NCBI GenBank assembly: GCA_042408215.1
Contig: JAYFMW010000017.1
Span: 1-64,000, forward strand
Direction: 5' to 3'
DNA: 64,000 bases
Source of the DNA: Microcoleus sp.
GTDB taxonomy: Bacteria > Cyanobacteriota > Cyanobacteriia > Cyanobacteriales > Microcoleaceae
This document shows, one piece after another, positions 1-12,470 of this stretch. How positions within the stretch are numbered: position 1 is the stretch's first letter; each line of letters starts with the position of its first letter. Below the pieces are notes generated by a model. That model had not been told where the DNA came from and ran no database searches. It saw nothing but the letters and a program-made list of their open reading frames with translations. The position numbers and the translations under genes were made by a program.

Positions 1-552
1 GCGGGATATGAAGTGGTGGAAGTTTTCAGGGAGACTGCCAGCGGTGCCAAATCCGATCGCCCGGAGCGCCAAAAAATTATGGCGGCAGCGCAGGCACGAA
101 AAGTTTCGGCGGTGCTGGTGACTGAGGCTAGTCGATGGAGCCGCAGCACGATCGACCTGCTGGGAACTTTGCAAAGCTTGAATGCTTGGGGCGTGTCGCT
201 GGTTACGCTGTCTGGAATAGGGTTAGATTTGAACACGCCGCAGGGCAAGTTGATGGCGGCGGTTATTTCGGCGATCGCTGAATTCGAGCGGGATTTAATC
301 CGGCAGCGGGTGAAGAGCGGGATGGCGGCGGCGAAGGCGAAGGGTCAGAAGTTTGGGCGGCCGCGAGTGTCGGAAAGTGCGATCGCCCTTGTTCACCAGT
401 TGAGGGCGCAAGGCAAAAGTTATTCGCAAATTGCTGAAATTTCTGGAATCAGTCGGACTAAGGTTTTTGAGTTGTGCCGCGCCATGAATGAATCACAGCT
501 ACGACCTGTACCGGCGACATTCCAGCGAGTAGGGCCGATCGCACTTCTTTAA
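1..552 (+). CDS. Serine recombinase/resolvase family protein, 5' end outside window
   Basis: ETASG...RPE, V-x-E-x-SRWSRS, TPQGKLM..I.AIAEFERDLI.QRV..G...AKAKG..FGRP motifs and a C-terminal HTH; the frame is open back to base 1. Confidence 0.9.
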   Translation, partial: AGYEVVEVFRETASGAKSDRPERQKIMAAAQARKVSAVLVTEASRWSRSTIDLLGTLQSLNAWGVSLVTLSGIGLDLNTPQGKLMAAVISAIAEFERDLIRQRVKSGMAAAKAKGQKFGRPRVSESAIALVHQLRAQGKSYSQIAEISGISRTKVFELCRAMNESQLRPVPATFQRVGPIALL

Positions 553-1393
553 GTCTCGCTTGTGCTATCTCAGAATCGATGTTGCCACCGGGAATGTGAA
601 CGTGCCGCATTCGGGAGCCGTCGCGATAAGAGAATCGGAAATATTCCCCGCTGCGGGCCGTGCCACGAGGCCGGTAAGTAGATATTGCTCGTGATACAGA
701 ATCATCCTCAGCAACCTCGACAATGTATTCTGTATCAGCAACCTCGACAGTGTATTCTGTATCAGCAACCTCGACAGTGTATTCTGTATCAGCAACCTCG
801 ACAGTGTATTCTGTATCAGCAACCTCGACAGTGTATTCTGTATCAGCAACCTCGACAGTGTATTCTGTATCAGCAACCTCGACAGTGTATTCTGTATCAG
901 CAACCTCGACAGTGTATTCTGTATCAGCAACCTCGACAGTGTATTCTGTATCAGCAACCTCGACAGTGTATTCTGTATCAGCAACCTCGACAGTGTATTC
1001 TGTATCAGCAACCTCGACAGTGTATTCTGTATCAGCAACCTCGACAGTGTATTCTGTATCAGCAACCTCGACAGTGTATTCTGTATCAGCAACCTCGACA
1101 GTGTATTCTGTATCAGCAAATGTAGAGGCTGGTGATACAGAATCAATTTCCGGCGGCGCGGGTGCGAGCTTGACTTCATCGGGATAGAGAAAATCCCACT
1201 GGTTGATGTGAGGGTTCCAAAATCGAAGGCGGCCGTCGATCGGATGAACTGCGTTCACTTTGAAAATTTCGCCGCGCTTCACCCAAGCAGCGATCGCCGG
1301 TTTCCTTCGCAGCTTCACCCAGTCGCCAGCTTTGTAAAGGCTGCCTACTTCGGCGGTCGCGGTGTCAAAAAGTGAAAGTTGAGCATTGACCAT
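458..1393 (-). CDS. Hypothetical protein with about 15 ADTEYTVEV repeats and a C-terminal HIPGGN-containing domain
   Basis: ATG start with GGAG upstream; non-repetitive flanks are open in the same frame. Confidence 0.7.
   Translation of the reverse strand: MVNAQLSLFDTATAEVGSLYKAGDWVKLRRKPAIAAWVKRGEIFKVNAVHPIDGRLRFWNPHINQWDFLYPDEVKLAPAPPEIDSVSPASTFADTEYTVEVADTEYTVEVADTEYTVEVADTEYTVEVADTEYTVEVADTEYTVEVADTEYTVEVADTEYTVEVADTEYTVEVADTEYTVEVADTEYTVEVADTEYTVEVADTEYTVEVADTEYTVEVADTEYIVEVAEDDSVSRAISTYRPRGTARSGEYFRFSYRDGSRMRHVHIPGGNIDSEIAQARLKEVRSALLAGMSPVQVVAVIHSWRGTTQKP
709..1118. repeat. 27-bp tandem repeat (CAGCAACCTCGACAGTGTATTCTGTAT), about 15 copies
   Basis: Near-perfect head-to-tail copies with no spacers. 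Confidence 0.97.
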
Positions 1394-1647
1394 ATCGGCA
1401 CTAACTCCTTTGTCAATCGATTTTAGATTTTAGATTTTAGATTTTAGATTTACTTCATCGACGTATTCTTTCAGATCGGGATATTTCATGATTGTTTGTC
1501 TAGCATTGGTAATTGGTAATTGGTAAGTGCTGATCTCTCCCGGCTGTCACTCCACTTTTTGGCAGGTGTCGCCAGTTTTGCAACTAATGCCTTAATGCAC
1601 TGCTACACATAAATGGGCTTCCATAGAAAGTCATTTATCTGTAGCAC

Positions 1648-1923
1648 TCATTTGTTGACGGCTTCTCTAAACTGCTTACCGGCCGAGAATGCCGGAACTA
1701 CCGCAGCGGGGATATCCATCTTCTCCCCGGTCTTAGGGTTGCGGCCTTCACGGGCCTTGCGCTCTTTCGCTTCAAAGGAGCCGAAACCTACCAGCGTTAC
1801 TTTCTCACCGTCGGCAACCGCTTGGGTGATGGAATTTATCAGAGCATCCAACAGAGCATTTGCAGCTTTCTTGGTGGTCTCAGCTTTGGTGGCGGCTAGT
1901 TCTACAAGTTCAGATTTGTTCAT
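1648..1923 (-). CDS. hup: HU family DNA-binding protein (element-borne copy)
   Basis: MNKSELV, VTLVGFGSF, REGRNPKTG, VPAFSAGK signatures. Confidence 0.95.
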   Translation of the reverse strand: MNKSELVELAATKAETTKKAANALLDALINSITQAVADGEKVTLVGFGSFEAKERKAREGRNPKTGEKMDIPAAVVPAFSAGKQFREAVNK

Positions 1924-1968
1924 AAGTGCGATCGGTTTCGGTAATTAGTCATTAGTCATTAGTAACGC

Positions 1969-2001
1969 AAAACCAGCCCCCGTAAGGAGTGCTGGCTTTT
2001 T
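1969..2001. terminator. Hairpin flanked by A/T tracts
   Basis: AAAACCAGC...GCTGGCTTTTT. Confidence 0.45.
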
Positions 2002-2158
2002 GGTTCAGTGGCGGTTTCCTCCTGTCGTTGTTAGATCTCTTGCTGCTGTTGCTGCACTTTGTTCCGCTGCATGTTTTGCTGATGCTTTCTGCGTTCAACC
2101 TCTGTTAATCTCCGTTGGAGCTCAACGATGAACTCCATTTGCACCTGCTTGCGATATC

Positions 2159-2371
2159 TCAACGTGGCTCAAGGATTCTCCCCAACTGCTTTTCTCGTCG
2201 ATAATGTCTCTCCGGGCTTGATATTTCCACTGCTAGCGTCTGAGCAACTCGTCCGAGCTTCTCTCCCAGCCGCTCCGCTTCTCTCGAGTGCCTCGCTCTC
2301 CGTCCGTCTAGTCGGACTTTGTCATCTTCCCCGTACTTCTGTTTCCTGACTTTGCATAGCTTTCGAGTCAT
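2159..2371 (-). CDS. Small basic protein, possibly a degenerate DNA-binding regulator
   Basis: ATG preceded by an AG-rich RBS; divergent from the 2523 operon. Confidence 0.35.
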   Translation of the reverse strand: MTRKLCKVRKQKYGEDDKVRLDGRRARHSREAERLGEKLGRVAQTLAVEISSPERHYRREKQLGRILEPR

Positions 2372-2394
2372 AACTTCTCTCTCTAAATAGATGA

Positions 2395-2439
2395 ACGTCT
2401 ATGAGATCTTGACAGTTATCTCATTAAGACGTCTATGAT
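2395..2439 (+). promoter_or_regulatory. Putative sigma70 promoter with operator-like repeats
   Basis: TTGACA 2409-2414 and TATGAT 2434-2439; ACGTCTATGA at 2395 and 2429; ATGAGAT/ATCTCAT inverted repeat around the -35. Confidence 0.4.
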
Positions 2440-2522
2440 GACTTCAATGTCTGTAATGTAAAAGACTGCACTGCATACCCCAAACATTGATGGGTGGGCA
2501 ACTCCCACCCTTTCCCTAACCT

Positions 2523-4436
2523 ATGTACACCCTAGAAAGCCTTCAACAGAAGAATCTCAAGGAACTCAAGGAAATCAGTCGGCAGCTCAACGTGCTCCCA
2601 TTGGGCGATCGACGGTGCCGCCAAAACTGGATTAATGTCCTCATCGGCACTCAGCCCCCCCTGCTGCAACTGCTGGAAGTTCCCCCCGGTGTCGAACCGG
2701 TTGCTGAGGCGAAACGCAAGCTAGAAGTTCAATCCCAGGAGCCGATCGAAGTTCAAGCCCAGGAGCCGATCGAAGTCGATCAAGTCCAGGAGCCGCCGAT
2801 CGAGTCCAAGTTTGGCCGCATCATTTATCCCAAACCGGCCGTTAAGCCGATCACACAAAATGCAGAAACTAGACCCCAACTCGACAGAACAGAAAGTGCT
2901 GATGTACATAACTGGCGCTCTCATCCCGCCGACTCAGTTCGAGATAGCAGCAGCGCTAAAGCTGAAGCACTGGGAAGCAAGGAAGGCGATCGGGTATTGG
3001 CGCTGTCGGGGAATAGTGAAGCAGTTCGAGGGGGAGTTTTACCCCGTCAGCCAATTGAACTAGCGGCCACATTCAATGACGAACAACCCCCGAAGCTGAA
3101 CGAATATTCCCCAACAGGGTTTGGGTGTCCGAAATGTGGTGCTGCTTACGGCTTGTACATCGGGAAAGACTGCTTGGGTATATCGGAGATTAAATGCTTG
3201 CACTGCGATTTCTCCGAAGGAACACTTGATTGTCCGAGATGTGGCGCTGCCCACGGCTTGTACACCACAAAGGACTACTTGGGTAGAGAGATAATTAAAT
3301 GCTTGCACTGCTGGTACTCCCGAAGAAAACACTACCCCGGCTCGATCTTACTTGAAGCCGAAGAGCCGCCGATCTATGTGCCAGATACGCAAGATGGGAT
3401 TGATTTACAGGATTCTGAGTTTCAAACCACCGAGCCGCCGATCGAGTCCAAGTTTGGCCGCATCATTTATCCCAAACCGGCCGTTAAGCCGATCACCCCA
3501 GCGACCGAAACTTCCCCCGGTGTCGAAAATTTCAAAGACGATCGACCGCCGAACCGTGGCGACGACAATGGCAGAGACAGACTGGAAGTTGAGCCAAAAT
3601 TGAGCCAAAGTGCGATCGTACCAGCGGTCAAAAATTCCCCCGGTGTGAGTCGCAAAACTTCAACAGCCCATCAACTTTTGGAGCTGTTCAAATCCTCGGC
3701 AGTCATTCTTGGGGATTCCCCCGCTGCCGAAACTGAGGCAGAAACGCTCGAAAGTGCGATCGGCTTAGCGGCCAAAAATCTCCTCGATGCTGAAGCCGAT
3801 CAGAATCCGATCTTGACCAACATCACCTTTTCTCCTGGCTTTCTCGCTCGCTATTCCCCGCCCCAGCCTGAGAACATCCACTATCAATCCGACGCTGACG
3901 GGCAACTGAGCCTGCTTGATTTTGAGGTGGAATCGGTAGACGAACCGCCAGACCCGGATGATTTTGAAACCCTCAATGCGTTCCGTGAGGCGATCGCACT
4001 TTGGGATGCTGAACACCCCGAACCGCTAGAAGTGTCTCTGAATTCGATGTCCGAGTGGGCCCCGTGTCCTGATGACTGGTACGAACCCGACATTTTGCTC
4101 GAACTGTCTGAAGTGTTGGAACTCTCACCGGCGATCGAAAGTTCCATCACTTGCAAATTCCTGATTCCTGTTTTTGACGCTTGGTGCGATCGCGCAAACC
4201 GACAAAACGACACCGATGAACCGCCCGACACAGGGATTTTCGCCCGCTTGCCGGGGCCCAAACCGCCCAAATTTCCTCCAATGGCGATCGCGTTGATCGA
4301 CACCGCCAAAAAGTGCTTTAACGCAAATCGGCATACTACACGCATTACAATTGCAGCCCAAGCTCACATTACTCGCATCGCCGCCGGCAGTAGCAGTAAG
4401 TCACCGCGATCGCCTCCGGGAGGTGATGCCATGTAG
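2523..4436 (+). CDS. Hypothetical protein: Rho-N-like N-terminal helix, two tandem CxxC...CxxC zinc ribbons, acidic/Pro-rich body
   Basis: LQQKNLKELKEISRQLNV; CPKC..CLHC and CPRC..CLHC; EPPDPDDF motif. Confidence 0.75.
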   Translation: MYTLESLQQKNLKELKEISRQLNVLPLGDRRCRQNWINVLIGTQPPLLQLLEVPPGVEPVAEAKRKLEVQSQEPIEVQAQEPIEVDQVQEPPIESKFGRIIYPKPAVKPITQNAETRPQLDRTESADVHNWRSHPADSVRDSSSAKAEALGSKEGDRVLALSGNSEAVRGGVLPRQPIELAATFNDEQPPKLNEYSPTGFGCPKCGAAYGLYIGKDCLGISEIKCLHCDFSEGTLDCPRCGAAHGLYTTKDYLGREIIKCLHCWYSRRKHYPGSILLEAEEPPIYVPDTQDGIDLQDSEFQTTEPPIESKFGRIIYPKPAVKPITPATETSPGVENFKDDRPPNRGDDNGRDRLEVEPKLSQSAIVPAVKNSPGVSRKTSTAHQLLELFKSSAVILGDSPAAETEAETLESAIGLAAKNLLDAEADQNPILTNITFSPGFLARYSPPQPENIHYQSDADGQLSLLDFEVESVDEPPDPDDFETLNAFREAIALWDAEHPEPLEVSLNSMSEWAPCPDDWYEPDILLELSEVLELSPAIESSITCKFLIPVFDAWCDRANRQNDTDEPPDTGIFARLPGPKPPKFPPMAIALIDTAKKCFNANRHTTRITIAAQAHITRIAAGSSSKSPRSPPGGDAM

Positions 4437-4602
4437 GATAAATTGCTTGCTTAAGGCGTTTGAACAACTTATCTCCCTTCTGAATCTGAACAGTGCGATC
4501 GTCCCTCGAACCGGTCGATCGCTTCCTCTACCAACCATCATCAAACGTATAAAGATCTATGACTTTTCTGAAAATTTCCCTTCCCGTTTACAAAAGAGAT
4601 AA

Positions 4603-4977
4603 ATGGGACACCTTGAGAAAGACGGCAGAATTGAAGTTAGCAGCGACGTAGATAATCTTTCGGAAGGTTATCAATCTTTAAGACTTGAAATTGAAGAACT
4701 GATTTCAGAACTGAAAGCTGAAAGCCGTTTAGCAGAAGAGGCGTACACATTAGAATGCCAGATCGAAAAAAAAGCTTCCGAGCTAAAAAGACTTCTCAAA
4801 GATATCGAGAGAGCCACAGCACATTATGAAAGCTTGAAATTCTTTTTAATGAATTTGGGCATCGCTCCAACTTCGTCTAGGCTGACATTTGACAAGCAGT
4901 TCTTGCCACAGGACGCATCGCTATCTCAAGTAGAAGTTGTGCCGCTTGAGTCGAGATACCCCGACGACGTTATTTAA
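4603..4977 (+). CDS. Hypothetical coiled-coil protein
   Basis: 124-aa ORF with heptad pattern, in operon-like array. Confidence 0.6.
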   Translation: MGHLEKDGRIEVSSDVDNLSEGYQSLRLEIEELISELKAESRLAEEAYTLECQIEKKASELKRLLKDIERATAHYESLKFFLMNLGIAPTSSRLTFDKQFLPQDASLSQVEVVPLESRYPDDVI

Positions 4978-5035
4978 TCATCAACAAAGAAGCGATTTTC
5001 GGTGACTGAGAATCGCTTCCTACCAACAACTAATT

Positions 5036-5858
5036 ATGGAAATAACCGCCGATTTCAACGACATTTTTTGGAAACCCCCAGAAACAGAATTCCAACCGCT
5101 CCTAGACTTTGAATCCGAAGTTTCCGACGAAGCGCCGTACAACGACATTGCCGTACTCACCAAGAGCCTCAAGCTTAGCTTCCTTGACTACGTGCGACAA
5201 GGAATCATGCTCCACACCGTTCGCCGCTACCGCCTTTATAAACAGCAGTACAAAGATTTTGCCGAATACTGCAAACTTGCTATAGGGCGATCGCACTTCT
5301 ACTGCAAAAAGATTATCCAAGCCGCTCAGGTTTGTTTGGAACTCATCAAGTCCAAATTTGCAACTTCTGCCCAACATCGGTAGCGCAAGCACTCCCAACT
5401 GGTGAAGTTTGCAAAAATTGACGCTTACGGTCAGCAACCAATTAGCGGACAAGTGGCAAACTGTTCTCGATGGATTCCCAGACCACCAAATCACAGCGGC
5501 CAAAATCCAAGAAACTCTTGATGAGAACCCAGAGGACAGAGCCAAGCAAGTCCGCATTGGTGGCAAAGCTTATCAAATACTGGAACAAAAAGCAGCAGCA
5601 GCGGGCATGACAGTCTCTAAGTATCTCGAAATGCTCATCGGCGGCACCGAACCGCCTGACGAAGAACCGCCCGACGATGAATACTGCGGGGAAGGAGAGG
5701 AGTTAACACCAGAAAAAGAGGAAATCTTGGACGATTTAGAGAAGTCTTGGGCCAAAACCAAACCCGCGTCAGATTTCGGCAAAAAGAAACCCTCAAGAAG
5801 CCATAAAAAAGCTATCAACCCCACCATTAGATCGGGCGAAGCGTCCGATTCATCCTAG
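5036..5858 (+). pseudogene. Hypothetical mobile-element protein split by frameshifts near 5360-5435
   Basis: ORFs 5036-5383 and 5409-5858 join into one plausible protein (LYKQQYKDFAEYC...SVAQALP-LVKFAK...KWQTV...ITAAKI) if several single bases are removed. Confidence 0.55.
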
Positions 5859-5874
5859 TTAGTTTTTTAAAACC

Positions 5875-6381
5875 ATGTCTCATAATACTTTCACCTATAG
5901 GCATTCTGACTTACCCGTGTTTCGCCCTGAAATCAAAGCAGAAATTATTGCCTTGGGTCTTCATGCCGATGACTTGATTCTCAAGAGCCACGGCAACTAC
6001 CGGGAGCTTGAAGAGTTGGCAGAAACTCTCGACAACTGTCTGAATACTTGCGAGCTAAACCTTAACTCGATCCGAATAATCCCCGACGACAGCCCACAAC
6101 CCGCAACTGTCAGCTTGCGAGATTTGCCAATTGAACAAAAACAACTTATTTATTCTTGTTCAAGAACCAATTCGATTTTGCTGAATTTGCTGAGTGAACT
6201 TCTTAATCAACCTTGCGAACAAATAGCCCGCGACATAGCAGAACAAGTCGCTTTGCGTCAAGAACCAGTAGATACAAGCGAAATAGAAAATTTCATCGAC
6301 AACGTAATGCTGCCGCTCGTTCAACAAACCGAAAAAAATCCTTCCGCTACAGGTCATTACGTTTTTAAACGAATCGACTAA
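5875..6381 (+). CDS. Hypothetical protein
   Basis: 168-aa ORF followed by a terminator. Confidence 0.65.
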   Translation: MSHNTFTYRHSDLPVFRPEIKAEIIALGLHADDLILKSHGNYRELEELAETLDNCLNTCELNLNSIRIIPDDSPQPATVSLRDLPIEQKQLIYSCSRTNSILLNLLSELLNQPCEQIARDIAEQVALRQEPVDTSEIENFIDNVMLPLVQQTEKNPSATGHYVFKRID

Positions 6382-6386
6382 GCGCA

Positions 6387-6425
6387 AAAAAAAAGCGGTT
6401 GAATCCCGACTTCAACCGCTTAATT
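6387..6425. terminator. Intrinsic terminator-like hairpin
   Basis: A-tract, AAAGCGGTTGAA-loop-TTCAACCGCTTT. Confidence 0.7.
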
Positions 6426-6473
6426 CCAAGCTGTCTCGACTATTTTTTACACAATGGCATCTATTAATTTACC

Positions 6474-6773
6474 ATGCACCAACCTCAAAATCGACAGATT
6501 GCTGATTTAGTGCAATCCGCCAAAGAACAATATGGCGATTTTAGCGACGCAAAAAAACGAGAAATCTTTGAAATCATCAAAGAAGCCAAATCGCGCGGCT
6601 TGTTGCGAAAGCAGCCTCACGACAAATGTTTGAGCGATTATGTCAACGCCGCCAACCACCTACTGAGAAGCTATCCAACTGAAGAATTCACAGCAGCGTT
6701 GAATCGAAATCTTGATTACGTATATGTGTACGTTGCCCTTGTCGGCACCAACTCCATCCTCACAACCGCCTGA
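6474..6773 (+). CDS. Hypothetical protein directly upstream of the bridge-like RNA
   Basis: 99-aa ATG ORF. Confidence 0.6.
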   Translation: MHQPQNRQIADLVQSAKEQYGDFSDAKKREIFEIIKEAKSRGLLRKQPHDKCLSDYVNAANHLLRSYPTEEFTAALNRNLDYVYVYVALVGTNSILTTA

Positions 6774-7020
6774 CGAGGGCCGCCTATGGAATCAGCGGCT
6801 GAAACTCCCCTTATTAAGGGGGGTAGCGGATCGATTCCAACCCGAACCGCCACAGCATCGCGGCCGACTTAAGGCTTTCATAATGAAACAAGCTCTATAG
6901 GGCTTTTAGCTTTTCATAAGCTTGGTCGGGTTTGCGCGCTGTAGCCCTGCGTGCTTTAAGAGTGAATTAGGCTCATTTTATTGCGGCCTTTGGGTGATTC
7001 ATAAGCACTTTGTTCCAGGG
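6774..7020 (+). ncRNA. Putative IS110 bridge RNA (5' hairpins, target-binding loop 6852-6942, donor-binding loop 6945-7020)
   Basis: Two hand-folded stem / internal-loop / hairpin modules sharing GCTTT...TGAA and TTCATAAGC; loop strands match the element end and flank at 8254-8268. Confidence 0.8.
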
Positions 7021-7041
7021 AGTAAACCTCACCCTATAAAC

Positions 7042-8262
7042 ATGAAAATACTAGGCGTTGATATTAGCAAAGCCTCCATTTCTGCGTGCCTGCTTTTAGA
7101 AAAAGCCAACGCAAACGCCGATGCGCGCGATACTTTGTACGAAACCAAATTTCATAAATTTTATGCAGATGCCGCTGGAATTTGCGGACTGCTCGATCTG
7201 ATTGGTGATGGCGAGGCGATCGCAATAATGGAGCCGACCGGCATCAATTATCAGAAATTGTGGGGAACTCAACTTGCCAGAGCCGGCGTTGAAGTGCGGC
7301 TTGTGGGACACGCAGAATTAAGATCTTTTCGCCACCACCACCTTGGTTTGCCTGATAAAGACGACGACGCCGATGCTCTAGCACTGGCGCTGTACGGCTG
7401 GGAATATCTCGATTTGCCTCGCAGGTTTTTGCAGATTCGAGAAGGAGCGATCGTAAAAATCCGCGAGTTCGCTTTGCGGTTGGCACACCTGAACAGGGTG
7501 CAAAGTCCCATAATTAACCGGGCGAGGCAAGATTTAGCTTGGCAATTCCCCGAAATTGCGCTGATCCGCTCAGTGCGTTACGGCGAAAGAGTACCTTTGC
7601 TGTGGGGTTGGCTTTCGGGCGAAGGACCAAGCAAAAAATACGATCGCCTTTATGCCGAATCGATCGGCTTAGGCCTCACCGAATCTGTACGCCAGCACGC
7701 CGCCAGACTTTGCAGCTTGCAGCGCGAAGAAATGGTAATTGAACAAGAACTTTTTAAATTGCTTGCCGCTCCGCAGTTTGCCCGCTACCGAAAAGTTTTC
7801 GTCCGGTTTGGATTTGGACAACGAGTCGAAGCGCTGCTGCTAAGTCAAATTTACCCGCTGCAAAATTATCTTGCAGCCGACGGCACGCCAGAAGTAAAAA
7901 TCGCCAAAGGTCGCAAATCCGGCAAGCCAACCAAGCGATACCTTTCTCTGCGGCGGTTCATGAAAGCTTTAGGGTGCGCGCCCTCGCAGGAAAGTAGCGG
8001 TGATTTGCAAAAGTCTAAAGTTATGGGAGGTTCCGCGCTATGTCGGAAAGCGCTTTGGCAATGGATTTTTACCAGAATCGAGCCCAAGAATCGCCGGCTA
8101 TCAAACGACATAGGCTGCTACCTTGGAGAAATTTTAGATTCTGAAAAAGCCAGCGGTCGGCCGGTGAAGCTTGCCCGATCGCGCGTCGCGGCCAAAGCCG
8201 TAAAAATGCTCTTTAAAGAGCTCGTCAAGGCGCTCGCTCAGGATAAAAAAATGTTAGAGTGA
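7042..8262 (+). CDS. IS110-family (DEDD RuvC + Tnp serine) recombinase, 406 aa
   Basis: MKILGVDISK, MEPTG, KDDDADA, LGCAPSQESSG, GG..LCRKALW; ATG 7042 preferred over TTG 6922. Confidence 0.9.
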   Translation: MKILGVDISKASISACLLLEKANANADARDTLYETKFHKFYADAAGICGLLDLIGDGEAIAIMEPTGINYQKLWGTQLARAGVEVRLVGHAELRSFRHHHLGLPDKDDDADALALALYGWEYLDLPRRFLQIREGAIVKIREFALRLAHLNRVQSPIINRARQDLAWQFPEIALIRSVRYGERVPLLWGWLSGEGPSKKYDRLYAESIGLGLTESVRQHAARLCSLQREEMVIEQELFKLLAAPQFARYRKVFVRFGFGQRVEALLLSQIYPLQNYLAADGTPEVKIAKGRKSGKPTKRYLSLRRFMKALGCAPSQESSGDLQKSKVMGGSALCRKALWQWIFTRIEPKNRRLSNDIGCYLGEILDSEKASGRPVKLARSRVAAKAVKMLFKELVKALAQDKKMLE

Positions 8263-9078
8263 AAATCTTTGCGTTGCCTTGCTATTTTTTGATGATGTTT
8301 AGCAAGGCGTTTAACAGCTTTGGGTCTGCGATTACTGCCTTTCTTTTTGCGAGAAACAGCCTTATTTCGCAGCTTTTTATCAATCTCAGCTTTTCTAGCA
8401 AACTGAGGGATAGATACGGTTTCACCATCACTGGTAATCAAGAAATCCTTCAGTCCCATATCAATACCGACAACATTATCAAGATTGACATCAGGACTAA
8501 TTGTAGGAACCGTTACATCTTGCAATGTCAGCACCACATACCAGCCATCAGCGTTCTTGACGATCTGAGCAGTTTTAATTTTGAATCCATCGGGAATAGG
8601 GCGGTGCAAGATAATCTTCACATCGCCAATCTTAGATAGAGTTGATGCGATTACCTTTGATGCAGTCTTGCGACATCTGAGTATAGGTAAAACTGTGATA
8701 TCTACCACGACCTTTAAATCTTGGCTTACCAGAGCGTTTACCTGCTTTGTCAGCACTGATATAACGGTCAAAAGCTTTCTTGACTCTAGCAATGCAATCC
8801 TGAAGCACTTGAGAATGAATGTTTTTGTACTCAGGAAATAGCTTTTTGGTATTGAGTAGATCTCGCTTTTGCCAGTAATAATCAGGCTGTTCAACTATGG
8901 GAGCAATGCTACATAATACGAGAGAGCATGAATTAACAGGACTACGAGTAGACTCATACCAGTTAAATCTCTCTGCCAGCCTATAGTTGTACTGCATACG
9001 CAACAAGTCAAGCCACTCATCGAATTGATGAGCTTGGGCTTTGTTAGGGCGTAATTTGTACTTGTAGGCTGTTATCAT
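8259..9078 (-). pseudogene. tnpB: IS200/IS605 TnpB, frameshifted near 8640 and truncated after RKDFH
   Basis: AYKYKLRPN HTH, SQVLQD, GKPRFK, GIDMGL (RuvC-I), KKKGSNR; RuvC-II, Zn finger and RuvC-III absent. Confidence 0.92.
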
Positions 9079-9351
9079 GCCATAATTGTACCATAAGATA
9101 GATGGTATATAGTAATGAAAAAAATAACTTTTCATCTGGCAGATCAAGAGTTTGATTTGCTTGAATCCTACTGTGAGCAGACCGAAAGAGGTAAGACTGA
9201 AGTGTTGAGAGAATTGATACGCAGTTTAAAGATTAGCTCTAAAAGCAAAGATAATTGTTAATCAACGGGGTATCGAACCCCGTTGATTAACACGCTTACA
9301 TCCCGTCACTCAAGGTCGTACCGTTAGAGTGCGGGGCTTTCGCTTAGTAGC
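8260..9351 (-). mobile_element. Left half of an IS200/IS605-family (RHH + tnpB) element
   Basis: tnpB, divergent RHH gene, hairpins at 9258-9290 and 9302-9335 resembling a left end; outer boundary approximate. Confidence 0.7.
9115..9261 (+). CDS. Ribbon-helix-helix (CopG-like) protein divergent from tnpB, 48 aa
   Basis: MKKITFHLADQEFDLLESYCEQTERGKTEVLRELIRSL...; not in the ORF track. Confidence 0.8.
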   Translation: MKKITFHLADQEFDLLESYCEQTERGKTEVLRELIRSLKISSKSKDNC

Positions 9352-9531
9352 TAACGATTCCTGGTACACTGACTCTAAAAATCCTGGCCCCGTCGCCGTT
9401 TTAGTCCTAGATTCTAGAATAATTCTAAGTTTTCAACCTAGTTTTGTCGTTTCAGCCGTTGAGTACGCTAAGTTTACATGAGTTTGCTTACTAGACAGTT
9501 TCTAGATTTCATCCAGGAATTCCGGTGAGGC

Positions 9532-9570
9532 TTGACAAAAACACAAATTAACCCTAAATTTAGGGTTAAT
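9532..9570 (+). promoter_or_regulatory. Promoter with a perfect 24-bp palindrome over the -10
   Basis: TTGACA 9532-9537, 17-bp spacer, TAAATT; ATTAACCCTAAATTTAGGGTTAAT 9547-9570. Confidence 0.55.
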
Positions 9571-9912
9571 CATTAAGTGATTAAGCGGATAGTTACAGGA
9601 AGTTTTGCATCGCAGTACGCTTTAAGCGGTGCGACTGAGCCGATGCACCTCAATCGCCGCTCCAATCGCTCTATAGGCTAACTGTTCTACCTGTTCGCCC
9701 AATTGTCTCATTCTTCTTTCTTCTTCCTTCGCGTCCTACCCTACGGGAACGGCTTCGCCGAACGCGTCTTCGTGGTTCATTCGTTCTTTCCTCTCAATGT
9801 GTCGATCGCACAAATATCATATCCCCTCTTCGCTACTGAGACAATAATCCCGATCGCACCCCAGCCGTTCTAAAATCAAAGGTAATTCACCTAAATTTGA
9901 CATAGGCACCGC

Positions 9913-11118
9913 ATGGATACTAAAGCTTTTAAGCGATCGCTACAACAGTCGGCAAATTACCACCGCAAGGGTTTCGGGCACGAAGCTGAGGTTACGGAGG
10001 TGATGAAGACGGCTTATCAAAGCAGTCTGATTCAGCAAATTCGGGACAATAATTACAGACTGGAACGCAACGGCGTCACGATTCGGCTGGCGGAGTCTTT
10101 TGGTTTTTGCTGGGGTGTGGAACGCGCCGTAGCTATTGCTTACGAAACTCGCCAGCATTTCCCAACGGAACGGATTTGGATTACGAATGAGATTATTCAC
10201 AATCCCTCAGTAAACCAGCATTTGCGGGATATGGAAGTTGGTTTTATTGCGGTTGATTCGGGGCAGAAAGATTTTTCGGTTGTCGATAGTGGCGATGTGG
10301 TAATTTTACCTGCTTTTGGGGCGAGCGTGCAAGAAATGCAGTTGCTCAACGATAAAGGCTGCAAGATTGTTGATACAACTTGTCCTTGGGTTTCTAAGGT
10401 TTGGAATTCTGTTGAGAAGCACAAAAAGAAGGATTATACTTCGATTATTCACGGTCAGTACAAGCATGAAGAAACTGTTGCGACGAGTTCTTTTGCTGAT
10501 AAATATTTGATTGTACTGAATTTGCAGCAGGCTGAATATGTCAGCAATTATATCATATATGGGGGCGATCGCAATGAGTTTATGGCGAAGTTTAGCAATG
10601 CTTATTCGGCTGGTTTTGACCCAGATGTGGATTTAGAAAGAATTGGCATTGCTAACCAAACTACTATGCTCAAAACTGAGACGGAGCAGATGGGCAAGTT
10701 GTTTGAAAAGACGATGATGCGGAAGTTCGGCCCGGCTCAGTTGAACGAACATTTCTTGAGTTTTAATACTATTTGCGATGCGACTCAAGAGCGGCAAGAT
10801 GCGATGCTGAGTTTGGTGGAGGAAAAGTTGGATTTGATGGTGGTAATTGGGGGTTTTAATTCTTCTAATACGACGCATTTGCAAGAGATTGCGATCGACA
10901 ACACTATTCCGTCTTATCACATTGACTGTGCGGAACGCATTTTACCAGGAAATCGGCTCGAACACAAGCCTTTGGGGGGTGATTTAGTCATCGCACAAAA
11001 CTGGCTACCGTCGGGCAAAATTGTGGTGGGGGTGACTTCTGGTGCTTCGACGCCGGATCAGGTTGTGGAGGATGCGATCGAGCGCATTTTTGCCGTAAAA
11101 GCAGCGCTTGTCCTTTAA
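9913..11118 (+). CDS. ispH: 4-hydroxy-3-methylbut-2-enyl diphosphate reductase
   Basis: [43 protein letters not shown]. Confidence 0.97.
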
Positions 11119-11258: not shown

Positions 11259-12470
11259 CTAAAGCTGAACTACGCAGCTCTCTATCCCATTGCACAAGGC
11301 ATTTGGGATTGCTTTTCGCATAATATTGTAAGACCCATTAACATCGGCATTAATTAATTGACCGCAGGATGTTTTGTACAATCCTCTCTTAATTCGTTGA
11401 CCACTAAATGTGACATCCATGTCACCAATACTCCCGTATACAGGAATTGGATCTAAATTCAGAAAACTGGATTGAGAAGTATATGATTCTTCCTGCACCA
11501 TCACTCTTATTCCAACCAATACAGCCTTATATTCCAACATCTCAATTAATCGAGCATGAGGAACTGTTACGAAGTTCTGATTAGTTTTTTTTCCCAAATT
11601 AATCTCGTTTTTCCATTGCACATTTTTCCCTATTACCAGAGTCCCAATCTTTTCTGAACTTAAAAGATTGATGATGGAACGACTGGCCTGGTGTAAGTAA
11701 TTCTCGATTTTTTGGTTTCTACAACGAGTCAAGCGCTGAATCCTACGCGATGTTTTGCGACTCTCTTTCAATTGAGATTGTAGATGTGCTTTACGCTTGT
11801 TGTAAAACTGATTAATTGATTTTAATGGTCGTCCGTTAATCAGTAAAGGGACAAATCCCGGCTGATTTGAAGTTAACGCCACTAAATTATTTAGCCCTAA
11901 ATCGATACTAGCTACTAATTGTTTCTGATTTTCATCAATGGTGGACTCCGGCTCATCATAAATTACCTCAATTACATAACAATCACACTTAGGAACTAAC
12001 CTAACTTGACAAATTTGCTCTGGTTTTACCTTGGTCTTAATCAAGATGTTAGTCCCGGACAGATGGATAATTCCTTTCTTTAGTTGCTTGGTACTAATCG
12101 CCTGAATCGTATAAACGAGAATGTTTCGCCCTTTGACTTTATCTTTGTACTTGGGTAACTTTGGGCTACCAGTAAATTTTGTTGGCTCAATATTGTAAGC
12201 TTTAACGGCTTCAAAAAAAGATTTCCAATTCTTGTCCAATATCATCAAGATTTGTTGACTTACCTTGGCTGGTAAGTCCTTGTATGCTTGATGAGATTTC
12301 ATCAAACAGTTCATTTCGTTGTAATTGATATAACCCCATCCATAGACAAAACTCTGACGAATAACGTAGTTAGCGACGTTGTAGAGATTTTTGGATTTAA
12401 AGGCTAATCCGTCAATTTCAACAAAACGATTCTCGGTGGATTTAATGATGTGTCTCTCTGCTAGTTGCAT
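11259..12470 (-). CDS. tnpB: IS200/IS605 TnpB RNA-guided nuclease, apparently intact, rearranged RuvC-II type
   Basis: SIDLGLNNL, LVIGKN, QEESYTS, INADVNGSYNI; no tnpA adjacent. Confidence 0.93.
   Translation of the reverse strand: MQLAERHIIKSTENRFVEIDGLAFKSKNLYNVANYVIRQSFVYGWGYINYNEMNCLMKSHQAYKDLPAKVSQQILMILDKNWKSFFEAVKAYNIEPTKFTGSPKLPKYKDKVKGRNILVYTIQAISTKQLKKGIIHLSGTNILIKTKVKPEQICQVRLVPKCDCYVIEVIYDEPESTIDENQKQLVASIDLGLNNLVALTSNQPGFVPLLINGRPLKSINQFYNKRKAHLQSQLKESRKTSRRIQRLTRCRNQKIENYLHQASRSIINLLSSEKIGTLVIGKNVQWKNEINLGKKTNQNFVTVPHARLIEMLEYKAVLVGIRVMVQEESYTSQSSFLNLDPIPVYGSIGDMDVTFSGQRIKRGLYKTSCGQLINADVNGSYNIMRKAIPNALCNGIESCVVQL

Follow-up and report, generated by a model that had tools for sequence, protein, structure and literature searches.

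Bridge RNAs are an established feature of IS110-family insertion sequences (IS), and in IS621 the 5′ strands of the guide loops pair with the bottom DNA strand and the 3′ strands with the top strand, with the core present in every guide, as described in the accessible part of Durrant et al. 2024 (PMC11208160). The available text of a 2026 preprint (Hu, Xie, Yang, Rubin, 10.64898/2026.08.14.744561) describes IS110 loci that reach 100 kb, have cargo derived from plasmids and show half-match boundaries; members of IS110/IS1111 that target mobile DNA or repeats appear in the accessible portions of PMC11208160 and 10.64898/2026.03.19.712850, namely IS4321/IS5075 (Tn21 inverted repeats), IS1111-attC and ISPpu10 (repetitive extragenic palindromes, REP). 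Here we analyse a 64,000-nucleotide stretch (the window; positions 1 to 64,000, forward strand, of contig JAYFMW010000017.1) of the Microcoleus sp. assembly GCA_042408215.1, in which a bridge RNA gene and an IS110-family recombinase gene abut a truncated tnpB; the source assembly is denoted G000 and the contig C17. An earlier note on this DNA had proposed that the bridge RNA is programmed to integrate into the D-F-H-Y codons of tnpB genes. We consider it likely that the bridge RNA gene and recombinase (6766–8262) instead make up the engine of a long IS110-type element with cargo, placed at its right end, and that tnpB was an incidental, near-cognate site.

The locus resembles IS621 and ISCro4 (PMC11208160, in the part available; structures 8WT6 and 9T56) in its DEDD/Ser fold, in a bridge RNA placed directly 5′ of the recombinase and in the order of target loop and then donor loop, and, as far as that text goes, it shares with IS621 the strand orientation, a core in each guide and guides that covary with the flanks. 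It differs from IS621 in its core, GA(A) versus CT, in its recombinase (406 versus 326 amino acids, with no match in a PDB sequence search), in a fixed T at position −6 of the left target and left donor that the guide does not match, in a right end that can coincide with the stop codon, and in a bridge RNA that lies ~16–17.5 kb from the left end in complete relatives and not in a short left end. This is not the compact IS110 format (about 1.0–1.6 kb, bridge RNA in a long non-coding left end), and with the left end ~16–17.5 kb away in G001 and G098 the element fits the expanded IS110 class of the 2026 preprint rather than the classical IS. Like the large IS110 elements in the available text of that preprint, it is far over 1.5 kb, carries cargo, has left and right target guides that fit the flanks, and shows half-match and rearranged junctions; unlike those described there, it is cyanobacterial (Microcoleus, Nostoc), has no resistance cargo that we could see, and forms a conserved 17–19 kb unit with one fixed left end. 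As IS4321/IS5075, IS1111-attC and ISPpu10 also illustrate, RNA-guided IS can insert into other mobile elements or repeats; the targets of those elements, in the portions of the sources available, are recurrent, conserved and hit many times, whereas the tnpB hit here is a single near-cognate event. A literature search found no paper on IS110 insertion into tnpB, nor on this cyanobacterial lineage.

Recombinase, bridge RNA and guide–flank covariation

The recombinase open reading frame (ORF) runs from an ATG at 7042 to a TGA at 8260–8262 and matches NCBIfam NF051857 (transpos_IS110_2) at 509.9 bits versus a cut-off of 180, with 393/393 positions covered; Pfam PF01548 (DEDD_Tnp_IS110) scores 26.9 bits, under its 29-bit cut-off, and PF02371 is undetected in a Pfam scan. 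Its AlphaFold (AF2) model has a predicted local distance difference test score (pLDDT) of 83, and the best Foldseek matches to this model are ISCro4 (9t56) and IS621 (8wt6), with E 3e-9 and a template-modelling (TM) score of 0.54. Residues D7, E64, D105–D111 and S319-G320-D321 are invariant across 20 homologues, and these would be the equivalents of the IS621 catalytic residues; by homology, the chemistry of strand exchange would be like that of IS621. The protein family is large (906 hits among 8000 candidates scored), and we fetched 160 loci, taking in each case the top 80 from 191 genomic and 160 metagenomic ones; these are given L numbers here, with genomes and contigs given G and C numbers. 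In addition, 14 metagenome runs contain half or more of the words of window 1–9400.

The two-loop architecture of the bridge RNA is kept in the 99 of 160 fetched relatives that could be parsed by loop patterns; the other 61 were left out as patterns failed or contigs were truncated. A 5′ hairpin is followed by a long stem around the internal loop GGGCTT-T[N6]GAA ... [N6]TC[RY]-AAGCTC, and then by a second stem around TT(A/G)AGAGT-GAAT ... GGGTGAT-TCAT. An RNAalifold consensus of 31 sequences gives 43 pairs, with compensatory changes in 21, and the single-sequence fold has a z of −2.5; an Rfam scan of 6000–10000 returned only chance-level miRNA-like hits and no family that fits the bridge RNA. 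The loop strands reported earlier, TCATAATGAAAC (6878–6889), TTAGCTTTTCAT (6906–6917) and TAAGAGTGAA (6957–6966), are present in the window, and on the strength of conserved architecture and covariation we find that these are genuine bridge-RNA loops, target loop and then donor loop, 5′ of an IS110 recombinase, as the earlier note had recognised.

We denote left and right target as LT and RT, left and right donor as LD and RD, the matching guides as LTG, RTG, LDG and RDG, and the element ends as LE and RE. The first YTAGAGTGA after the recombinase, with at least 6 following bases, was found in 82/99 loci, giving 73 distinct guide/flank pairs, in each of which the reverse complement of RTG, the 3′ strand of loop 1, was compared with the next 6 bases (RT). 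Matches of 6/6 occur in 42/73 pairs, with 5/6 in 12, 4/6 in 2, 3/6 in 5, 2/6 in 7 and 1/6 in 5, as compared to a permutation null for 6/6 with a mean of 0.78 and a maximum of 5 (2000 permutations). On the left side, LTG and LT agree at positions −5 to −1 (5/5) in all 4 left junctions (G000, G001 and G098 twice) and in an intact tnpB paralogue. The covariation of guides and flanks that the earlier note had named as a check is present, and target-loop guides covary strongly with right flanks. The YTAGAGTGA motif sits −5 to +1638 nt from the recombinase stop codon in relatives and, because it can lie up to 1638 nt past the stop (L019–L098), many relatives carry extra DNA between recombinase and right end; in the window and in 11 other loci (63 parsed), the recombinase stop TGA is formed by the last T of LD and the core.

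The only bases shared by all four strands of the two loops throughout the parsed relatives are GA(A), and the base preceding GAA in the target loop is variable (T 37, A 23, G 13, C 10 among 83 distinct guide pairs), which places the core within GAA (window 8261–8263) and not at the dinucleotide TG previously assigned to it; a T happens to precede the core on both sides in the window. The left target guide fits the intact tnpB paralogue (T-TATAAT-GA) and a left junction on contig C11 (T-ATAAT-GA), except at position −6, and LDG reads AAGAGT-GA versus TAGAGT-GA in RE, with the joined donor form TTAGAGTGAATCCCC occurring in metagenome contig L115. The DNA base at −6 is T, and the guide base differs, in all four left junctions, the intact paralogue and LD; since this T faces another guide base at all these sites, position −6 is probably unpaired with the guide.

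A probable long element with cargo and a distant left end

The left end was located through L115, which is 97.8% identical to window 5712–8263 and past TTAGAGTGA reads ATCCCCAGCAATGAAC... (TTAGAGTGA-ATCCCCAGC), a junction in the donor configuration predicted by the donor loop (reverse complement GA-ATCACC). The tail of L115 corresponds to G000:C11:86627–86814 at 94.7%, where C11 reads ...GGATCTATAAT-GA-ATCCCCAGC..., i.e. TATAAT-GA-ATCCCC. The donor-type junction of L115 is the one observation that would speak for RNA-dependent recombination and a circular intermediate. C11 ends 3.4 kb past the left junction and C17 starts inside the element, so that the assembled parts of the element amount to at least 11.7 kb; its interior is single-copy in G000. 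The left end GA-ATCCCC is present in C11, L115, G001 and both G098 copies. In the latter two genomes it lies ~16–17.5 kb 5′ of the bridge RNA, whereas G000 has it on a separate contig. In G001 the left junction TAGATT-GA-ATCCCC is 17,177 bp from CTAGAGTGA-AACCAA, in an element collinear with the G000 pieces, and the complete genome G098 carries one copy of 19,019 bp and another of 18,822 bp, which have identical guides and exact AGGGT-GA-ATCCCC left junctions. The right flanks of these two copies (G098:C1:2334468–2353486 and 5705114–5723935) match at 6/6 and 5/6, and we read the pair, by its guides and flanks, as a natural example of the use of a near-cognate site.

Synteny with relatives supports the same picture. 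Window 3600–6773 is syntenic 5′ of the recombinase in nine Microcoleus loci, and copy pairs share homology far past the bridge RNA; the element had been taken to start near 6774, and what begins there (6764–6766) is the conserved bridge-RNA block alone. Because the 99-aa ORF adjoins this block in at least 6 relatives and is missing from others, a module boundary falls exactly at 6764. The stop codon of that ORF falls within the first conserved bases of the block (AACCGCCTGA).

The cargo is mostly of unknown function, with a resolvase, an HU-like gene, a weak NikA/MobA-like ORF and a weak Tlde1-like hit (Table 1), and a PHROGs search of it was uninformative. The repeat ORF has ~15 tandem copies of a 27-nt unit (ADTEYTVEV) at about 724–1119; the matching region of the G001 element has a single copy of this unit. 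Going inward from the left end, the first ORF encodes 142 aa (L224 45–473, minus strand, equivalent to G000:C11 about 86644–87072) and has a Tlde1-domain hit of 24 bits, under the cut-off; small membrane ORFs come next, and the 142-aa ORF is 70% conserved in the G001 element.

Table 1. Positions of the features of the element and its right flank within the window
Feature	Position	Strand	Basis or remark
Element cargo; the contig begins inside the element	1..6765	+	Synteny with relatives; collinear with G001 element
Resolvase, cut by contig start	1-552		Cargo; Pfam Resolvase, 110 bits
Tandem-repeat ORF, 311 aa	458-1393	-	Cargo
HU-like gene	1648-1923	-	Pfam Bac_DNA_binding, 110 bits
637-aa ORF	2523-4436		Cargo
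Weak NikA/MobA-like ORF	5409-5858		Cargo; NikA-like and MobA hits under cut-offs
99-aa ORF, family unknown	6474-6773	+	Cargo
Bridge RNA gene; conserved block starts at AACCGCCTGA (6764-6773)	6766..7041	+	Homology to many relatives begins at 6764
Left target guide T-CATAAT + core GA (target-loop 5′ strand)	6878..6886	+	Family alignment
Right target guide AGCTTT + TC; reverse complement GA-AAAGCT	6908..6915	+	Fits right flank GA-AAATCT at 5/6
Left donor guide TAAGAGT + GA	6957..6965	+	Fits element end TTAGAGT-GA (8254-8262), mismatch at -6; kept in all aligned relatives
Right donor guide GGTGAT + TC; reverse complement GA-ATCACC	6993..7000	+	Real left end GA-ATCCCC, 5/6
IS110-family (DEDD/Ser) bridge recombinase, 406 aa, intact	7042..8262	+	NCBIfam, AF2 model, Foldseek
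Element right end: LD TTAGAGT (8254-8260) + core GA (8261-8262)	8254..8262	+	YTAGAGTGA motif in relatives, then guide-predicted flank
tnpB 5′ part, cut after ...QRKDFH; +1 frameshift near 8640	8263..9078	-	ORFs, Pfam, alignment to intact paralogue
Rest of left end of IS200/IS605-type unit	9079..9354	.	Identity to C3 copy ends at 9354; G013 homology with window starts at 9351

No match to the left target guide was found beside the conserved bridge-RNA block. LT within 2.5 kb 5′ of 63 relatives matched at 6/6 in 2 loci versus a null of 2.46, LT together with RD gave 0 hits in 245,847 nt upstream of 99 relatives versus a null of 0.57, and inside the window TGAATCACCC, when as many as 2 mismatches were allowed, had 58 hits versus 52 expected, none of them usable. 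The missing 5′ end of the resolvase and contig overlaps were sought in G000 and none were found, and a plasmid collection gave 2 weak protein hits only. Two candidates were set aside: AGAGTGAATCACC on G000:C6, considered as a donor junction, lies inside an ordinary coding gene and is ascribed to chance, and GAATCACCC at the starts of two G001 contigs is merely a common 77-nt contig overlap. At G005:C14:4644856 there is an exact 14-mer, LT of the L059 guide followed by GA-ATCCCC, on a scaffold other than that of the L059 recombinase, and the left end of G000 showed no homology to it. With about 0.1 expected, this 14-mer may have arisen by chance; alternatively, it may be a rearranged or unlinked left junction.

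The tnpB site and the hybrid flanks

The recombinase gene runs, as the earlier note described, into an antisense tnpB cut after QRKDFH, with the junction TTAGAGTGAAAATCT at 8254–8268. Like the TnpB of IS200/IS605, the disrupted gene has HTH_OrfB_IS605 (Pfam, 43 bits) and OrfB_IS605 (partial, 51 bits) domains; unlike it, the window copy ends at DFH, lacks everything beyond, including the Zn-finger/TNB part, and is frameshifted by a one-base insertion near 8640 (98% mean column identity to the paralogue), and is not a full, single-ORF TnpB. The cut parts RuvC-I from the rest of TnpB, with RuvC-II/III removed, as had been proposed. A full-length, intact paralogue, 97–98% identical, lies on G000:C3 (L002 1095–2393, minus strand) and reads ...TTTATAATGAAAATC... 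/ ...QRKDFHYKSVKQ (D-F-H-Y), which on the window plus sense is ATAATGAAAATC / CACCGATTTATAATGAAAATCTTTGCG. Its site, T-ATAAT-GA-AAATCT, contains the target ATAA-TG-AAAA (ATAATGAAAA) that had been predicted from the guides and that corresponds to the D-F-H-Y codons. At the tnpB site the window guides match LT at 5/5 paired positions, the core, and RT at 5/6 (AAAGCT predicted, AAATCT present). This match exceeds chance.

This fit of the guides to the paralogue, the removal of RuvC-II/III by the cut, and a second relative, L033 (with its orthologue L244), that also lies within a tnpB are what favour the earlier view of a bridge RNA programmed for the D-F-H-Y motif of tnpB, used as a multicopy safe landing pad with the nuclease disabled. 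The relatives make this very improbable. L129, which has 78% protein identity and belongs to a different lineage, carries the same guides (AATAAT / AAAGCT), yet sits at GA-AAATCT 5′ of an NAD-dependent epimerase gene. Among 54 other distinct right flanks, only that of L033 is tnpB, at another position and co-oriented, so that with the window 2/55 right flanks are tnpB, at differing positions and in differing orientations and not, as had been expected, repeatedly at the same codon; family flanks are mostly 5′ regions of host genes. G000 has 4 remaining sites with ATAAT-GA and RT at 5/6 or better versus 7.5 expected from composition, one of them the intact paralogue; the two copies of this tnpB subfamily are the only ones with the target site in G000, and the left junction is not in tnpB. 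Given the non-tnpB flank of L129, whose guides are the same, the 1/54 other flanks that is tnpB and the 4 candidate sites, we find from these sequence comparisons that tnpB is an incidental near-cognate site, not a programmed or preferred target. In a genus survey, 22/78 other genomes have relatives, all at ~71% nucleotide identity or less except for one partial match at 75%, and the guides of the window element were not found in relatives of these 78 genomes.

The left flank complicates how the locus arose. The left junction predicted for an insertion into tnpB, ATAA-TG-AATCA, does exist on G000:C11 as ATAATGAATCC, off by one base, and it joins a locus that is not tnpB. A homologous site in G019, GCTATAATGGAAAAGTT (TATAATGGAAAAGTT), has LT, an extra G, the GA core and the RT AAAGTT (5/6), and G000 contig C9 starts exactly at that site, with TAATGGAAAAGTT. 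G013 is the closest relative; to the left of its tnpB/ispH site lies the counterpart of the end of G000:C10 plus ~2.7 kb missing from G000, and on its phosphoketolase side unrelated DNA follows right after TATAAT; neither G013 nor G019 gives a clean empty site for the hybrid locus. G000:C10 ends in a long heptamer tandem repeat (AGTCATT/GGTCATT), and the same repeat is found in G013:C249, ~2.7 kb from the tnpB/ispH site.

Several of our own findings weigh against a long element that landed incidentally in tnpB. The left flank on C11 is intergenic DNA downstream of a phosphoketolase gene and not tnpB, and no tnpB 3′ half was found in the G000 assembly outside the intact C3 copy, an outcome that the earlier note itself had said would count against its proposal. 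Because the left flank is elsewhere and there is no orphan 3′ half, these data do not establish a simple insertion into tnpB. The left junction takes the LT-GA-RD form expected of it and yet leads into another locus, which calls for either a second exchange or unassembled DNA. There is no assembled join between C11 and C17, and the two could belong to different copies; left junctions were not found in the available upstream sequence of the 99 parsed relatives, and the model of a long element draws on 4 junctions, from 3 genomes, together with L115. Pairing is imperfect (RDG–RD 5/6, and LT and LD each mismatch the guide at −6), and the functions given to guides and recombinase are predicted ones.

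We would picture integration as follows. A free circular form would present the donor site TTAGAGT-GA-ATCCCC, with which the donor loop of the bridge RNA would pair, while the target loop would pair with T-ATAAT-GA-AAAGCT-like DNA; the recombinase would then exchange strands in the common GA(A) core, integrating the whole circle, and the right junction (8254–8268) would have been made in this way at a near-cognate site in the tnpB D-F-H-Y codons. In a two-step order of events, which we infer, insertion at the tnpB site would have occurred in the correct register (LT 5/5, core, RT 5/6), after which the left junction would have exchanged with a second site through the common TATAATG, placing the tnpB 3′ half beside C9 (tnpB-3′half...TTTATAATG-GAAAAGTT). 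This order appears to fit best with the first bases of C9.

Two other origins of the hybrid flanks were weighed against this order. The element could first have integrated intergenically after the phosphoketolase gene (flanks L1/R1), its right junction being swapped later onto tnpB by half-match recombination, with the donor loop bound to LD and the target loop to the tnpB site, such that tnpB was hit by rearrangement and not by insertion. The left flank is indeed L1, the homologous G019 site (TATAATGGAAAAGTT) has an RT, AAAGTT, that matches the guide at 5/6, and half-match recombination by IS110 elements is reported in the available text of 10.64898/2026.08.14.744561; yet there is an extra G between LT and the GA core at that site, and C9 begins with TAATGGAAAAGTT, such that R1 keeps LT-side bases and is not joined to RE, which fits an exchange of the left junction better. 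We regard this origin as unlikely. We give somewhat less credence to an assembly artefact or a mixed population, in which two copies or genotypes were collapsed into one contig set, although contigs do break within the element (where C11 ends and C17 starts), the start of C9 is no more than 5 nt from the site, and contamination of G000 is 2.55%; the shortest contig of the assembly has 20 kb, so that short contigs linking the pieces may have been lost from it. C11, however, passes without a break from L1 into 3.4 kb of the element, as C17 does from the element into tnpB, the interior of the element is present in one copy, and the first bases of C9 are unlike an RE–R1 junction, all of which make an artefact improbable.

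Beyond the junction, the remainder of the IS200/IS605-type unit contains an RHH/CopG-like (ribbon-helix-helix) ORF 5′ of tnpB (9115–9261, plus strand; Pfam E 1e-3, under the cut-off), followed by a perfect hairpin at 9258–9291; both ORF and hairpin are also found in the intact C3 copy. A second TnpB-like ORF of another subfamily, intact at 403 aa (11259–12470, minus strand), lies 2 kb downstream, beyond ispH (9913–11118), and does not contain the target motif.

Apparent target preference and significance of the family

What the family seems to target was surveyed over 77 ORFs and 54 distinct right flanks with RT at 5/6 or better. Genes next to the right end that Pfam could recognise are co-oriented at 24 loci, with 5 opposed; when the longest ORF of each of the 54 flanks is considered, 37 are co-oriented, 10 are opposed and 7 flanks have none, with the first ATG/GTG within 100 nt of the junction in 21/37. 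There is thus an apparent preference in these flanks for sites just 5′ of co-oriented host genes. Some IS110 members, e.g., IS900, are said to insert between a ribosome-binding site and a start codon, in one orientation. The accessible part of PMC8141618 does not state this.

The left target guide has the consensus T(44) A(56) n A(46) a/t T(37), followed by GAA, among the 83 guide pairs, with A at RT +1 in 83/83, and this consensus resembles a −10 hexamer. The element end TAGAGT has TG at the extended −10 position in 23/54 flanks, and a consensus promoter scan of the window found nothing above shuffles. A tentative and rather doubtful reading is that these elements are aimed at the −10 hexamers of host promoters, with the element end, (TGn)TAGAGT-GA, replacing the hexamer in register so that the downstream gene would still be transcribed. 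A captured host −10 at the left junction would then read into the element, and tnpB would have been hit because the antisense of D-F-H-Y-K happens to spell TATAATGAAAA.

Taken together, these findings indicate that this locus should not be cited as one RNA-guided element programmed to hunt another, an idea that fails against the relatives of the element. What emerges is a well-supported natural bridge-RNA family in filamentous cyanobacteria, with GA(A) as its core, a fixed, probably unpaired T at −6 and 10–11 programmable positions. Its complete 17–19 kb elements, both ends of which obey the guide rules, represent very large natural payloads moved by a bridge recombinase, and the hybrid-flank locus may record a guide-directed chromosomal rearrangement in nature. 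The preference for sites 5′ of co-oriented host genes, if true, would bear on how such elements limit harm to their hosts.

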